11,745 nucleotides of DNA from a virus (Duplodnaviria > Heunggongvirae > Uroviricota > Caudoviricetes): IMG/VR virus record IMGVR_UViG_2778261203_000004. One strand, 5' to 3'. The position numbers and the translations under genes were made by a program. This document shows positions 1,532-6,670 of the stretch, piece after piece. How positions within the stretch are numbered: the stretch's first letter is position 1; the number at the start of each line of letters is the position of its first letter. Under the pieces are notes generated by a model. It had not been told where the DNA came from and did not search any database. It was given only the letters and a program-made list of their open reading frames with translations.

Positions 1532-1741
1532 TTAATTTGAATACAATGCAATTCTCGAGGACTGAAGTTTCTCGCAATTAAAATTTATCAGTTTTACTTT
1601 CTGCTCTCTGGAAACGCCTGCTTCTTTTTTACCTGAGAGCATTTTTTCGCATTCTGATTTCGTTAGTTTAGATTTTGAATATCTTGTCCAGTTAGTAGGA
1701 GTGCCACCTTCCTTTTCAATAGTGGCGGTAATTTTATACAT
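1532..1741 (-). CDS. ydaC: Small prophage protein of unknown function (69 aa)
   Basis: The track ORF 1532..1813 would overlap ralR by 80 nt. The internal ATG at 1741 (MYKITATIEKEGG...) is preceded by a strong GGAGGTG Shine-Dalgarno and gives 69 aa, with only an 8 nt overlap with the ralR 3' end. Confidence 0.65.
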   Translation of the reverse strand: MYKITATIEKEGGTPTNWTRYSKSKLTKSECEKMLSGKKEAGVSREQKVKLINFNCEKLQSSRIALYSN

Positions 1742-1928
1742 GAACACCTCCATTATTATTTCCAGTGGTTCGTTTATTCCATCTTTCGAGTGCTTCTTTT
1801 TCACTTCCACCATAACCGGTTCGGGATTCGCATCCGTTACACTTCGCTCGGTAATATCCTGAAATGGCTTTCACCGTTACTGATGGGCAACCACAAAATG
1901 GACATGGTTTAATATTGTCATATCTCAT
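1734..1928 (-). CDS. ralR: RalR/Lar-like restriction-alleviation protein, type I toxin (64 aa)
   Basis: Translation MRYDNIKPCPFCGCPSVTVKAISGYYRAKCNGCESRTGYGGSEKEALERWNKRTTGNNNGGVHV with two CxxC pairs. Start at ATG 1928 chosen over the upstream ATGs at 1940 and 1967, which lack a ribosome-binding site. Recognised from memory as Rac RalR. Confidence 0.75.
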   Translation of the reverse strand: MRYDNIKPCPFCGCPSVTVKAISGYYRAKCNGCESRTGYGGSEKEALERWNKRTTGNNNGGVHV

Positions 1929-1984
1929 AATTTTTCTCATAAAAAATATTTCAAGTTGGCGGTGCATTACACCGCCAGGCTGAA

Positions 1985-2794
1985 TTATTCCTCTGAATTA
2001 TCGATTACACTGTATTCCCCGGTTAATACAGAGGAATCTGCAGGATCGATTGTCAGTGGTTCCTTTTCATCCATTGATACTGCACGCTGGATCTCAATTG
2101 ATACGGGCAAATATTTGAACAGGCGACGAATAGCCGTTTTCTTTGCCATTTCTTCCCAGTGAGTTACCCACGGCCCGTTATTACCAGCTTTACTCAGGCT
2201 GCGCACCAGCTCAATCTGTTTGCGCGTCATAACTTCAAACTGAGTACCTCCGTCTTTCAGTCTTGCGACAGCATAGACGTGGGTAACCGGGGCATCTTCG
2301 TTTTCTCCCGGGCGGTGTATTAACTTTTCATCAAGGCCAAATTCGAAGCTAAACTCGTCACCTTCACGGACAACACGGGCTGACAGGCTGGCGATTTGAC
2401 CAGAACGGCGAGCCAGATCAATCATGCCGCGATAGCCAATGATTAGCTGAACGTTCTTTTTATCGCTCTTTTCGTTTTTATTACCAAAAGGCAGTAAATA
2501 TGCATGACCGAGGGCGCTACCTGGCTCAAGTCCGAGCTGTGAACACTGTACGATCGCACTGACAAAACTCATAGTGTCACAGTTTCCTAACGCCGGAACT
2601 TTACGAATTTCTGTGGTGGCGATACGGATCATACGTTCAGCCGTCATATGGCGTGGAAGAGCTGCTGCCAGTTGCTCTTTCATTGATGGCTGGTTAATAA
2701 AACTAATCACGTCGCTATTTTTAACTGCTGCTGGTGCACGGTTTCCCTGAGTTTTTTGCAGATCGGCTTTTGCGATTGGTGGTTGCTTAGTCAT
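1985..2794 (-). CDS. recT: RecT single-strand annealing protein (269 aa)
   Basis: Protein begins [24 protein letters not shown]. The ATG at 2794 is preceded by AAGGAA at about 9 nt, whereas the track's longer N-terminus (ATG at 2851) has none. The 3' end of recE overlaps it by 8 nt, suggesting translational coupling. Confidence 0.9.
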
Positions 2795-5387
2795 TTGCAT
2801 ATTCCTTAGCCCAGCGGGGCAGTGATAATGTCTTAATAGCTGGCCATTCATCGGTATTCAGGCAGTCAGACAGGGTTCGCAGATTGCGGTGATATTCCTG
2901 TTGACCTGCCAGTTTTGCTTCTTCGCCCATCATGAAAATTTCAACCGGATAACGTCCGCATTCAATAGTTGTGCTGGCAACCAGAAAAACGAAAGTTGGC
3001 TGCACTCCAAACTGTGCTTCATAACCGTCACTGTAGAATGCATCCTGAACGTGATAGCGGTAGTCGTAATAAGCGGTTTTGAATCGTTGAATATCCGCCG
3101 TAGTTTTCACGTCCATGATCCAGTGAAATTCAGGGATAATTTTGTCCGGACGGCACCGACACAAAATTCCTGTTTCAGGATCTTCCCAGTAAATTGATGA
3201 TTCAGCGTGTCCGGCGCTTTCAACAAGCCATTGCCCCAGCGGCAAAGCCATAACGCTTTGATACATGAGTTCAATTTTCCGGCCTTCTTCCGCAGTGATA
3301 ACCGTTTTTCCTGTGCTTGCGCATTCCATCAGAAACGCTTTCTCTTCTTCTTTTCCGGCGTTTGTACGGCGGTTAAATTCAGGTGCTACGATAAAGCGGT
3401 TACTGAATTCTTCCGGTTCAAGTACCCGGCAGTGGAAAGCAGTTCCTAAATCGAGCGTTTTTGTCTTTGTGGTGTCCACGGGGGCATTTTTACGCCACAA
3501 ATATAGTGCCGGAGTATCAGCAATGTCATCGAGCTGAGACTTACTGATACCGGGACCCGCGTGGTAATTCTCATTCGAAATTCCGTAATAAATACCTGGC
3601 TCTATGTCTTCTACGATTACGGGATCTGCGACTTCGCCAGTTTCATCACTGCAATCGCGATGCGGATCGCTGCCAGCATTCTCATTGTGCGGATGTTCAG
3701 CGCCTTCCATTTCCTCCGGATCATTTTCCTTAGCTTCAACCTGACTCTCTTCATCGAATGTTTCCTGGTATGTTGCGTCGCCCATCACCGCACCACAGTC
3801 AGGGCAGTTATCCCCGCCAGTCTGGCCGCAGGCATTGCAGGCTATTTCCGGTTCCTGTTGCACTACTGGCTCAGGTTGATTCATATCCGGGCTGGTTTTT
3901 TCCGTTTCTGGCTGGTTCTGGTACACACAATCGCGAGTCTGGATCCCCTTTACCCATTTCGGATCGTTCGGGTCGCTAATTCCGTCAACAAATTCATCAC
4001 GTGATGCAGCAAGCAATTTATCGGCATCGACAGGATTTTTTGATGGAATGTTTTTCCGGGCTTCATGGAGTTCTGCCCGCAGTTCCTGATATTTCGCATC
4101 AACAGAATTTACCTGTGACTGAGCATCCAGCGGCTGCGTGTCCTGATGATGTTCAGTTGCGTCCGGTTCCATTGTTTCAGCCTCTCCCTGTTCAACTGCC
4201 GTTGTTCCAGATGGTTGCGGTTTTTCTTCATCATCCTGTTTTCCTTCTTCTGTTACTCGCTGCGGCATCGGGGCAGAGGAGCGACCGCAGGCAATATCCA
4301 CGATTTCCGGATCAGGGTTGGCATGATCGGTTTCAGTCAGTACTTTGTTCAGATATTCAGTGACGTGCGCGGGGATGACCTCGATCCCAATTGGTGCTTC
4401 TTTTACGGACGCAACCACGATGGCGCGGGAATAATCCAGCCCGCCAGGCATGGTGATGAATTTGTCGCGGAAAACAGAAAAGGGCGGTTTATTTTCAGCG
4501 ATAATTTCCTCAATGCGTTTAGCGTGTGCCGGATGAAGGTTATAGATGTCCAGATCCATTGAACGGGCCAGTACGCCAGTGGCTACGTCGCGCGCCAGTG
4601 ACGTCAGATCGTGTACGAAACCTTCGCCGCGATCGGTGAGGTTTCCGCCGCCAGCATTAGCACCGGAAGCCGTGCGAGTGATGTGTGAAACACGATTACC
4701 CTTCATCCACTCTTTTGTCAGCAGTCCTCGATCGGTGTAGTCAGCGTTCAGGTATGCTTCGAAAAAAGCAGTTATCAGTCCCAGGTTTGAATTACCAGGA
4801 TTAGGGAAAACTTTGTCAGTGTCACGAACCAGTTTGTGGAGTTCGCGAATTTCCAGCGGGTCGAGCAGGCTGGTTTTGTGGGAAACAGCCAGGGCAGTAA
4901 CAGCCGGTAGTTCTTCAGCCCGAGCAATGTGTAATGCCTGGAGTCCGTCGCGTGAAACGTGCGTTACCGGTTTTTCGCTGCCGTGTTGAGCAAGCCAACG
5001 AATGGGCAGTTCCTGGCCAGAAATTGGGAGTAGCATATTCTCCTCAATCTCAGTCATGTCTTCGCCGTTGACGTTGGTATTGCCTTGATAGTGAGCGTTG
5101 TCTGGTGCTGCTCCCGGTTTTAGTTCCCATGTCATGGAGTCTTTGCTGAGTTGATAGCGTTCACTCCAGGTAAAATCGATCTCACCTTCAGCGGGCAGGT
5201 CATTAACGACAGGAAAATTCGTGGCAACAGCTTTAAAATAGCTGCTCAGTTTTTTACCTGACTTAACGATCAGGTAGTCCAGAGTGGCACAGGTCGATTC
5301 AAAATCGTTGCTTGCCCACAGGACGACGTCAGGTTCACCGGATGATTTTTTCGCTTTCCGTAACAGGAAGAGTGGTTTTGTGCTCAT
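2787..5387 (-). CDS. recE: RecE exonuclease VIII (866 aa)
   Basis: Single 866 aa ORF; GAGG Shine-Dalgarno upstream of ATG at 5387. Long acidic, low-complexity N-terminal and central region, then a C-terminal nuclease region. Directly upstream of recT with an 8 nt overlap. Confidence 0.9.
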
Positions 5388-6008: not shown

Positions 6009-6229
6009 CACCATGACTCCGCCTTTACAGGTAAACCATCACGACCGAGGAAGACTTTAATCATGCGGTCAGTAATGCATGTTTTTGTGGTCAGGTTACG
6101 AATATATAGTTTTCGCTTTTTAATATTGTTTGCCGAGGCAATATATGTCCGGCCTTCATGAAGAACATAATCGCCAGGAGTCACACACTGACGTGGTATT
6201 TCATCAGTTCCGAAGTGATGTGCAATCAT
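6008..6229 (-). CDS. kilR: KilR, prophage Kil-type cell-division inhibitor (73 aa)
   Basis: [46 protein letters not shown]...; ATG at 6229 preceded by TGGAGAT. The track ORF starts 4 codons further upstream without a ribosome-binding site. Confidence 0.8.
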
Positions 6230-6404
6230 AATTATCTCCATTTTTACAAATGAACTTTGTTGATGCGGTGCCTGGTGCCTCCAGGTGACTGCAACCAGTT
6301 AACAATTACAGTCGGCTTTCCCACCCAAACCAATAAGGACTAACATGACTTTTAACTGTGCCACGTGCGCTTAGCCGCATTCACCGCATCACAAAATTCA
6401 CTTT

Positions 6405-6452
6405 AAAAAGGGCGGACATCAGCCGAACTTCAAGAAAAAAACTGATGCCGCC
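6405..6452 (-). terminator. Candidate imperfect stem-loop followed by a T5 run on the minus strand, inside the kilR-sieB gap
   Basis: Minus-strand reading: GGCGGCATCAG - about 19 nt loop - CTGATGTCCGCC, then CTTTTTAAAG. The stem has one bulge and the loop is long for an intrinsic terminator, so this is weak. Confidence 0.25.
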
Positions 6453-6670
6453 AGGACTACACACAGCAATGTCGTTATTTACAACCGGAGGCGCACTCCC
6501 ACCATTTAAATTTAACAGACAAGACCGACTCTTTATGGATATCGGAAATGCGCCTTCGTGTTGTGCCCGGTTTTATTTCACCACCTCCGGGCTTCGGTGG
6601 TCTCGGCTATACCCCTACAGCGAGAGCTTGTGTTAACATTTCAATACCCTTACAGTTGAGAGTTATTGAT

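Follow-up and report, generated by a model that had tools for sequence, protein, structure and literature searches.

The recT-ralR-ydaC segment of a Rac-type prophage: position of the RalA antitoxin RNA, a probable protein-coding function for ydaC (rcbA), and a stem-loop that is likely linked to recT

The toxin gene ralR of prophage Rac is paired with a small antitoxin RNA, RalA, and a prominent hairpin occupies the spacer between ralR and recT. Where is RalA encoded, and does the hairpin belong to it? The original prediction, made by eye for a viral DNA of 11,745 nucleotides (IMG/VR record IMGVR_UViG_2778261203_000004; hereafter the window), regarded RalA as not placeable from sequence and suggested that the hairpin may be part of a short plus-strand antisense RNA covering the 5' end of ralR (approximately 1900-2200). 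We have little doubt that the recT-ralR-ydaC(rcbA) segment analysed here comes from the left arm of Rac, a cryptic lambdoid prophage of Escherichia coli, with RalA at 1557-1735 on the plus strand (Table 1). Between positions 901 and 2701, the window differs from MG1655 by 4 nucleotides, 2 of which are in ralR, and 1 of these changes RalR from the K-12 protein by I6V. The window stems from a non-K-12 strain background, and its positions 1450-2150 match strain H1, among others, with 100% identity. The gene order is the same as in K-12 prophage Rac, and the RefSeq annotation agrees on ralR. The RalR/RalA type I toxin-antitoxin pair is an already described system, and the present locus is the same as that of K-12 prophage Rac (Guo et al. 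2014; RF02694; NF007260), with no difference of substance. As a whole, the segment is probably best explained as the Rac RalR/RalA locus with a coding ydaC and a hairpin linked to recT.

Table 1. Positions of the features discussed in the text (window coordinates).
Feature	Position	Strand	Description
ydaC = rcbA CDS	1532..1741	-	69 aa, DUF1187
Candidate RalA -10 box TACAAT	1542..1547	+	9 nt upstream of mapped 5' end
RalA sRNA	1557..1735	+	179 nt, antisense to ydaC; overlaps ralR stop codon by only 2 nt
RalA 16-nt pairing segment	1619..1634	+	TGCTTCTTTTTTACCT; 62 nt from RalA 5' end
Proposed RalA terminator	1702..1735	+	6-bp stem (1702-1707/1722-1727), 14-nt loop, tail GUAAUUUU; from Rfam structure line and authors' description
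ralR (lar) CDS	1734..1928	-	64-aa Lar-family zinc-ribbon protein, MRYDNIKPCPFCGCPSVTVKAISGYYRAKCNGCESRTGYGGSEKEALERWNKRTTGNNNGGVHV
ydaC start/ralR stop overlap	1734-1741		8 nt, ATGTATAA
ydaC ribosome-binding site GGAGGTG	1745..1751	-	inside ralR 3' end; context CTGGAAATAATAATGGAGGTGTTC, then ATG
RalA target in ralR mRNA	1791..1806	-	AAGUGAAAAAGAAGCA; codons Ser-Glu-Lys-Glu-Ala
ralR-recT spacer	1929-1984		56 bp
Alternative ralR start, in-frame ATG	1938..1940	-	12 nt upstream of annotated start; would give 68 aa
Extended AU-rich outer helices	1946..1989	-	include recT stop codon; followed by U6 and ralR start region
Core stem-loop (GGCGGTG-catta-CACCGCC, 1958-1976)	1957..1977	-	mRNA: UGGCGGUGU-AAU-GCACCGCCA
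recT CDS	1985..2794	-	269 aa; stop codon 1985-1987, 7 nt before stem-loop

As predicted, the translation of ralR contains two CxxC pairs, CPFC at residues 9-12 and CNGC at residues 30-33. RalR matched the NCBIfam equivalog NF007260 over its full length (residues 1-64; 165.1 bits, cutoff 113), and this match and the RefSeq annotation support its identification as the toxin partner of RalA in the published type I system. It also matched Pfam PF14354 (53.7 bits, cutoff 28.6). Non-specific DNase activity and toxicity upon overexpression were reported for K-12 RalR (Guo et al. 2014, PMC4041452). A PDB sequence search returned no meaningful solved homologue of RalR or YdaC. The true start of ralR is possibly the upstream ATG in Table 1. 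An upstream in-frame ATG was present at -12 or -15 in all 23 distinct upstream variants (226 loci), and the annotated ATG was replaced by TTG in 8 of these loci and by ACG in 1. We discarded the minus-strand site TTGAAA-16-AATTAT (1954-1927) as a promoter of ralR: its -10 box overlaps the ralR ATG, and RNA made from it would not contain the start codon. No specific account of a promoter or terminator in the interval from recT to ralR emerged from literature searches.

RalA was located with a covariance model. Rfam RF02694 matched 1557-1735 on the plus strand with 225.1 bits (gathering threshold 170, E 2e-54, model positions 1-179), and this interval corresponds to ralA b4714 (NC_000913.3 1413556-1413734). 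The earlier failure to place RalA was thus due to the method of reading and not to the sequence. Guo et al. (2014, PMC4041452) described RalA as a 179-nt RNA within ydaC on the opposite strand. Its 5' end, 62 nt ahead of the repeat, was determined by primer extension, and its 3' end was inferred from a predicted terminator. Transcription of RalA takes place from within and just past the ydaC 3' end, which makes the RNA fully antisense to ydaC. Its terminator is weak and non-canonical, and a terminator scan made no call in that region. TACAAT is a candidate -10 box, and an alignment of upstream regions revealed TATAAT at this position in variant L273; a better promoter-like site, TTGACG-16-AATAAT, lies further upstream (1491-1518). 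The predicted fold of RalA was no more stable than that of shuffled sequences (MFE z -0.26). Rac-like RalA copies are too similar for covariation, and diverged regions scored 29-38 bits against RF02694.

Experiments by Guo et al. (2014, PMC4041452) demonstrated that a segment of RalA pairs with ralR mRNA, with Hfq assisting, and blocks RalR synthesis. Positions 63/64 of RalA (T and G) and the sequence of their M1 mutant also locate this repeat. Pairing in the present study refers to the presence and complementarity of the sequences, and the block of RalR synthesis is the finding of Guo et al. Within the 16-nt segment, 14 Watson-Crick pairs and 1 G-U pair were formed with codons 41-46 of ralR, and 11 of these pairs were contiguous. 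The 11-nt core was retained in nearly all of 81 distinct Rac-like ralR and ydaC pairs; however, this conservation is confounded because both partners sit in coding sequence. In a longest-exact-match test, an 11-nt match was reached by 4% of codon shuffles of the window and 2% of those of variant L098, and, thus, the 16-nt match exceeds chance by a small margin only. Diverged Lar-DUF1187 pairs lack a RalA-type pairing, which indicates that it is lineage-specific. Whole-length RNAduplex comparisons of antisense-ydaC with lar mRNAs yielded long duplexes that were no different from shuffles.

ralR and ydaC almost certainly share one mRNA. RalA and the ydaC part of this mRNA would therefore anneal into a perfect duplex of 179 bp, and RalA would act in cis on the bicistronic transcript, besides the 16-nt contact. 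A stronger version of this idea, that RalA acts mainly as a cis-antisense RNA (through the 179-bp duplex and RNase III) or by read-through into ralR, with the 16-nt contact being secondary, appears doubtful. The complementarity to ydaC is perfect by construction, the terminator is weak with a 3' end that was predicted rather than mapped, and the 16-nt match barely exceeds chance. However, RalA supplied in trans neutralised ralR alone, without ydaC, and mutation of the 16-nt repeat affected neutralisation; a paired-mutant construct was also made to test restoration (Guo et al. 2014, PMC4041452).

RalA resembles type I antitoxins that are divergent or act in trans and have short complementarity, namely those of the IstR-1/tisB, OhsC/shoB, and OrzO/zorO pairs: the contact is short (16 nt) and lies within the toxin mRNA, in place of a full antisense overlap, and a dependence on Hfq has been reported. 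RalR differs from those toxins in being a soluble zinc-ribbon protein and not a small hydrophobic peptide, and the RalA gene differs in lying wholly inside a conserved coding gene, ydaC, on the opposite strand. The Lar/Ral restriction-alleviation proteins are reportedly the subject of work by King and Murray in 1995. RalR is the founding Lar protein of this family (PF14354, TIGR03655), and shares with it the small zinc-ribbon, the two CxxC pairs, and a gene position downstream of recT in the early-left operon. In contrast, Guo et al. assigned a DNase toxin activity to RalR, not restriction alleviation.

The second gene of the pair was previously regarded as a gene of unknown function with a strong ribosome-binding site and a start that overlaps the ralR 3' end by 8 nt. 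The overlap and the ribosome-binding site were both confirmed. The coupling-type overlap was kept in all 81 distinct Rac-like variants with full-length ralR, the Shine-Dalgarno sequence was conserved, and the translation of ydaC is probably coupled to that of ralR. However, the description of its function is outdated: the annotated name is now RcbA (double-strand break reduction protein), and the opposite strand of its DNA encodes RalA. YdaC matched Pfam PF06688 (DUF1187) with 131.7 bits (cutoff 20.7) and NF007283 with 141.6 bits.

Comparative data argue that ydaC/rcbA is, with high probability, a genuine protein-coding gene. The ORF was retained at 60-67% amino-acid identity in at least 4 other prophage lineages. 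In comparisons with these homologues, pN/pS was 0.14-0.39, with pN of 0.09-0.27 and a near-saturated pS of 0.65-0.87, and third codon positions varied approximately twice as often as first or second positions (e.g., 18, 14, and 38 changes at the first, second, and third positions). When compared with the RalA model, the antisense strand of the diverged homologues scored no more than 29-38 bits and showed numerous broken or non-canonical pairs, and, therefore, what is conserved is the protein and not the RNA. This coding signature conflicts with the published claim that ydaC has no protein product. Guo et al. (2014, PMC4041452) concluded that the ORF is accidental and untranslated and that only RalA is functional: N-terminally His-tagged YdaC was not detected, and mutants with an altered start codon or a premature stop codon still neutralised RalR. 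The latter result indicates that the YdaC protein is dispensable for neutralisation in their assay. We consider an untranslated ydaC to be highly unlikely in view of the strong signature of purifying selection across lineages, the poor fit of the antisense strand to RalA, and the occurrence of DUF1187 without a Lar gene in one lineage (Klebsiella, L003). Either the protein or the antisense RNA, or both, could contribute to the double-strand-break phenotype of rcbA mutants.

The hairpin in the 56-bp ralR-recT spacer was present where it had been placed (1958-1976), but was slightly larger on the mRNA strand, with a 9-bp stem at 1957-1977 that includes 6 G-C pairs. Segments of 46-62 nt around it folded with approximately -20 kcal/mol, whereas dinucleotide-shuffled sequences gave -7 to -8 kcal/mol and none of 200 was as stable (z -5.2 to -5.9); the extended form (1946-1989) folded with -19.8 kcal/mol (z -5.4). 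The outer helices were not conserved in variants, and the 3' flank changes without compensation in the O157 type.

Diverse RecT modules carry a GC-rich stem-loop 5-9 nt past the stop codon of recT. Two RecT lineages share the same stem with different loops, UAAUG in the 269-aa Rac type and UAGCCU or UAGUCC in the 347-350-aa type. In one group of loci (L005/L220-223), compensatory changes occurred at two stem pairs (U-A to C-G, and G-C to U-A or U-G), and the gene after the hairpin encodes DUF7740, not lar. Distant RecT loci (L278, L279, and L281-283) carry sequence-unrelated 7-bp GC stems 5-9 nt past the stop codon. The covariation score of the hairpin was 0.168; shuffles gave 0.079, and none of 500 attained the observed value. 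This evidence was drawn from other RecT lineages, and the compensatory changes may trace to one evolutionary event. Covariation within Rac-type copies alone is not assessable because the hairpin is nearly invariant among them, with only singleton variants in which the stem is broken and uncompensated (L057/L066, L081, L085, and L048).

These results suggest that the hairpin belongs to the 3' end of recT on the mRNA strand and not to the toxin-antitoxin pair, a reading that we regard as likely. What is conserved here is an element associated with recT. The proposal that it is part of, or the terminator of, a short plus-strand antisense RNA that acts as the antitoxin over the ralR 5' end has some points in its favour: many type I antitoxins overlap the 5' end of the toxin gene, and the palindromic hairpin folds equally well on the plus strand (-20.9 kcal/mol, z -5.9). 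However, Rfam, b4714, and Guo et al. all place RalA elsewhere, opposite ydaC and approximately 220 nt from the hairpin. Furthermore, no plus-strand promoter-like site was found at 1518-2396, sites resembling a plus-strand terminator were likewise absent near 1900-1990, no T-run follows the hairpin on the plus strand, and the same hairpin follows recT where the next gene is not lar. Neutralisation of RalR was also obtained with DNA bounded by the start of ralR and the stop of ydaC, a segment without the hairpin (Guo et al. 2014, PMC4041452). This proposal is already largely refuted and appears extremely improbable.

Another reading retains the minus strand and proposes a separate ralR-ydaC transcript with the hairpin as its 5'-terminal stem-loop. 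This transcript would start at approximately 1990 from a promoter in the recT 3' end, and the stem-loop would stabilise it against RNase E. A TTAACC-18-GATAAT site (2026-1997, 9 of 12 matches) would initiate at approximately 1990, where the extended helix begins, and Guo et al. (2014, PMC4041452) reported ralR transcripts in the wild type, in which recET is under repression. However, the promoter match is weak, with 7 such sites in the region against 3.5 expected. The hairpin also persists in B-type and C-type loci, the recT 3' ends of which are wholly different, and is kept where the downstream gene is unrelated. We consider this reading to be unlikely.

Regarding the hairpin as an element of the recT 3' end, we examined whether it resembles a terminator. 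A U-tract within 0-2 nt of the core stem was absent, with AACUUGAA following instead, and none of the lineages compared had a U-run directly after the core stem; the hairpin is therefore not a canonical terminator. The U6 run in the window adjoins only the extended, non-conserved helix. A scan of 1200-2900 called no intrinsic terminator at the hairpin on either strand. None of the 3' ends listed in the Term-seq supplementary tables of Adams (2021, PMC7815308) falls at this locus; no conclusion follows from this absence, as wild-type cells repress the operon. No record in the phage GenBank collection annotates the hairpin.

Stem-loops that stabilise polycistronic mRNAs or act as leaky terminators include the REP hairpins in malEFG and the lambda tL terminators. 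The recT hairpin resembles these in being a GC-rich stem of 7-9 bp, 5-9 nt past a stop codon, with a conserved position and a drifting sequence. It differs in having no adjacent U-tract and no similarity to REP, and its role is proposed from sequence. We tentatively suggest from its position and conservation that it may act as a 3'-end barrier or a leaky, partial terminator, although the case is slightly less than even. It would then shield the recET message from 3' exonucleases and reduce read-through towards the accessory genes that follow (ralR, ydaC, xis, and int).

Since the locus is annotated at the textbook level, the placement of RalA only closes the question left by the original prediction. 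Modest by-products of the present study are comparative data indicating that ydaC/rcbA really codes for a protein, and a positionally conserved stem-loop that ends recT in many RecET modules. Two wider readings, which we consider unlikely, are that the stem-loop is an undescribed RNA element of RecET/RecT modules with a conserved structure and that Lar and DUF1187 form a conserved two-protein unit. If the former is true, the stem-loop would set the ratio of recombinase to downstream accessory gene expression or, alternatively, mark a module boundary at which these phages swap cassettes. Since recET cassettes are common in recombineering, any element influencing read-through or the stability of recT mRNA could be of practical relevance. 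If the latter is true, RalR would have RcbA/YdaC as its inhibitor or protein partner, with RalA added over the Lar-DUF1187 pair as a recent antisense layer specific to the Rac lineage.

What lies here is the already known RalR/RalA system. Segment 1450-2150 was detected by megablast in 1924 of 5426 complete E. coli genomes, at 100% identity in several of them and 99.7% in K-12 strains. Genome annotation over it reads xisR / rcbA / ralR / recT, and its counterpart in NC_000913.3 sits within "cryptic prophage Rac" (window coordinate = MG1655 coordinate - 1,411,999). Four bases between 901 and 2701 differ from MG1655; ralR holds two of them, one of which causes I6V in RalR. RalR (equivalog), RalA (Rfam), and DUF1187 each passed their membership tests at sequence level; the DNase activity of RalR, the Hfq dependence of RalA, and transcription in vivo are as reported by Guo et al. 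(2014, PMC4041452). The sequence features listed in the original prediction were all found: a 64-aa RalR with two CxxC pairs (CPFC at residues 9-12, CNGC at 30-33), the gene overlap, the ribosome-binding site, the 56-bp ralR-recT spacer, and the hairpin. Its observations were correct, and its interpretation was right in part only.

Coordinates of features in the window
Feature	Position	Strand	Basis or sequence
intR	1-1236	minus	ORF listing and translation
xisR	1238-1453	minus	ORF listing and translation
Sigma-70-like site	1491-1518	plus	TTGACG-16-AATAAT
ydaC (rcbA)	1532-1741	minus	ORF listing and translation
Candidate RalA -10 box	1542-1547		TACAAT
RalA	1557-1735	plus	RF02694
RalA repeat	1619-1634		TGCTTCTTTTTTACCT
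ydaC start/ralR stop overlap	1734-1741		ATGTATAA
ralR	1734-1928	minus	ORF listing and translation
ralR target of RalA	1791-1806		AAGUGAAAAAGAAGCA
Upstream in-frame ATG	1938-1940	minus
Hairpin with outer helices	1946-1989
Hairpin core, 9-bp stem	1957-1977	minus
Hairpin core	1958-1976		GGCGGTG-catta-CACCGCC
recT	1985-2794	minus	ORF listing and translation
Weak promoter-like site	2026-1997
recE	2787-5387	minus	ORF listing and translation
STnc100, sub-threshold	6222-6408	minus	Rfam
DicF, sub-threshold	6410-6465	minus	Rfam

RalA was the sole above-threshold Rfam match in the window (225.1 bits, gathering 170, E 2e-54, 179/179 model positions), and RefSeq ralA (b4714, 1413556-1413734, +) covers the same interval. 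Primer extension by Guo et al. (2014, PMC4041452) put its 5' end 62 nt before a 16-nt repeat; the repeat and its ralR target (codons Ser-Glu-Lys-Glu-Ala) were placed from their mutant descriptions. Based on these intervals and this placement, RalA lies inside the span originally flagged, opposite ydaC and 220 nt from the hairpin, and its contact with the ralR gene is limited to the ralR stop codon.

Repeat and target form 14 Watson-Crick pairs and one G-U, with a contiguous run of 11. An 11-nt exact complement arises in 4% (window) and 2% (the L098 variant) of codon-shuffled ralR sequences and, thus, is only marginally unusual for these A-rich genes. Of 81 distinct Rac-like ralR+ydaC pairs, almost every one retains it, a comparison confounded by both partners being coding. 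Position 16 shows one possible compensatory change in two loci (ralR A to T with RalA T to A). The fold stability of RalA did not exceed that of shuffled sequences (z -0.26), and the proposed terminator, a 6-bp stem with a 14-nt loop, was not flagged by a standard scan. The functional claim for RalA therefore depends on the mutational experiments already published. A full-length RalA match (209-224 bits) was present at every Rac-like locus tested, O157:H7 among them. At diverged Lar-DUF1187 loci, the antisense strand scored 29-38 bits against the RalA model with many broken pairs, and RalA-type complementarity to lar was not above chance. RalA looks like a feature of the Rac lineage.

The candidate RalA -10 box, which in variant L273 is TATAAT, stands 9 nt before the mapped 5' end. 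Of the sigma-70-like matches in the region, the strongest (10/12) points towards RalA and is better than this candidate, but it lies approximately 32 nt upstream of the 5' end; therefore, RalA may be a processing product of a longer primary transcript, or the site may have another purpose. In L273, its TTGACG box is swapped for unrelated sequence and AATAAT is retained. Elsewhere, adjoining sub-threshold matches to STnc100 (35.5 bits, gathering 47) and DicF (39.1 bits, gathering 48, E 1e-5) occupy 6222-6465, the region upstream of kilR on the Rac map. A degenerate DicF-like sRNA, paralogous to the one in the Qin dicF-dicB arrangement, may lie here.

The gene opposite RalA, ydaC, has since been named rcbA (double-strand break reduction protein); the original description gave its function as unknown. 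Guo et al. (2014, PMC4041452) argued that it yields no protein. A codon-aware comparison of four lineages gave pS of 0.65-0.87, pN of 0.09-0.27, and pN/pS of 0.14-0.39; third positions differed approximately twice as often as first or second positions, and the sense frame is the only open frame. This pattern is that of a translated gene under purifying selection, which makes RalA antisense to a genuine coding gene. A protein search reached DUF1187 homologues down to approximately 62% identity; these lie in other prophages, near integrase, excisionase, and RecE/RecT modules. Four diverged loci (L002, L004, L005, and L006) have a Lar homologue directly before DUF1187, and in L013 and L014 the two genes occur within approximately 200 nt. 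GGAGGTG lies 4 nt upstream of the ydaC ATG. Since the 8-nt overlap is retained in every Rac-like variant examined, the suggestion that ralR and ydaC are probably co-translated is reasonable. In a Klebsiella oxytoca-type prophage (L003, 2819-3186), DUF1187 lacks Lar upstream; an unrelated 64-aa ORF precedes and overlaps it and a large DNA methylase gene follows, showing that DUF1187 is not strictly tied to Lar.

YdaC is 69 aa in K-12 and the window and 62 aa in most other variants. Comparison of window 1532-1560 with L096, L097, and L098 traced the shorter form to TCTCGAG -> TCACGAG, an earlier stop (TGA on the minus strand) 2 nt from the RalA 5' end. In O157:H7 F3113 (L096), ralR (575-769) is an annotated pseudogene with an internal stop. 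Beside it, RalA (398-576, 218 bits) is intact, as is the DUF1187 gene in its 62-aa form, a pattern consistent with ydaC/RalA being kept independently of the toxin.

Another ATG in the ralR frame precedes the annotated start by 12 nt. All 23 distinct upstream variants, which cover 226 loci, keep it; its position is -12 where the locus is Rac-type and -15 where it is B-type. Since it persists where the annotated ATG is TTG (8 loci) or ACG (1 locus), RalR translation may begin at 1940, giving 68 aa and a 44-bp spacer.

On both strands, the hairpin folds far more stably than its shuffled counterparts (z -5.2 to -5.9, 0/200 shuffles as stable). Its AU-rich outer helices include the recT stop codon. 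The core is nearly invariant among Rac-type copies, with a few singletons carrying a broken, uncompensated stem; an altered 3' flank in O157-type variants abolishes the outer helices and leaves the core unharmed. A second RecT lineage (347-350 aa, with a distinct C-terminus and ralR as the next gene) shares the stem (UGGCGGUG/CACCGCCA) and differs in the loop, which is UAGCCU or UAGUCC; one sub-variant shows U-A -> U-G. In the L005/L220-223 type, two pairs show compensatory changes (UGGCGGCU(G)/(C)AGCCGCCA), and recT is followed by DUF7740, not lar. More distant RecT loci carry UGGCGGG/CCCGCCA (L278), GGGAGGC/GCCUCCC (L279), or CGGCCCC/GGGGCCG (L281-283). In the non-Rac lineages compared, the stem begins 5-9 nt past the stop codon (z -1.6 to -4.2). 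An alignment of 16 related variants showed double-sided changes at two stem pairs, which may go back to one event; the covariation score was 0.168 versus 0.079 for shuffled alignments, with 0/500 shuffles reaching it and slid controls lower. The exact stem on 80 viral contigs was in recT-ralR context in 45 and unrelated context in 35. In several E. coli genomes (H11-H15), an IS1 has inserted towards the 3' end of recT, shortly before the hairpin and ralR, as in L300 (NZ_CP149449.1; site at approximately window 2040).

Since a post-stop stem occurs across RecT lineages, also where lar does not follow, we assign the hairpin to the recT 3' end on the mRNA strand. In the main rival reading, the hairpin would be the 5' stem-loop of a ralR mRNA initiated at approximately 1990 from the weak promoter-like site; the stem at loci without lar favors the recT assignment. 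The antisense RNA over the ralR 5' end originally proposed is very improbable: the plus strand has no promoter-like site at 1518-2396 and no T-run after the hairpin, and the RalR-neutralising DNA (ralR start to ydaC stop) did not contain the hairpin (Guo et al. 2014, PMC4041452). No lineage compared has a U-run directly after the core stem, so the hairpin is not a canonical terminator. The supplement of a Term-seq study records no 3' end here (operon repressed in wild type). We tentatively favor reading this recT 3' element as a barrier at the 3' end or as a leaky terminator, which would stabilise recET mRNA and attenuate read-through.

For this already known system, the present analysis thus offers two side results of modest weight: purifying selection on ydaC and a conserved stem-loop after recT.
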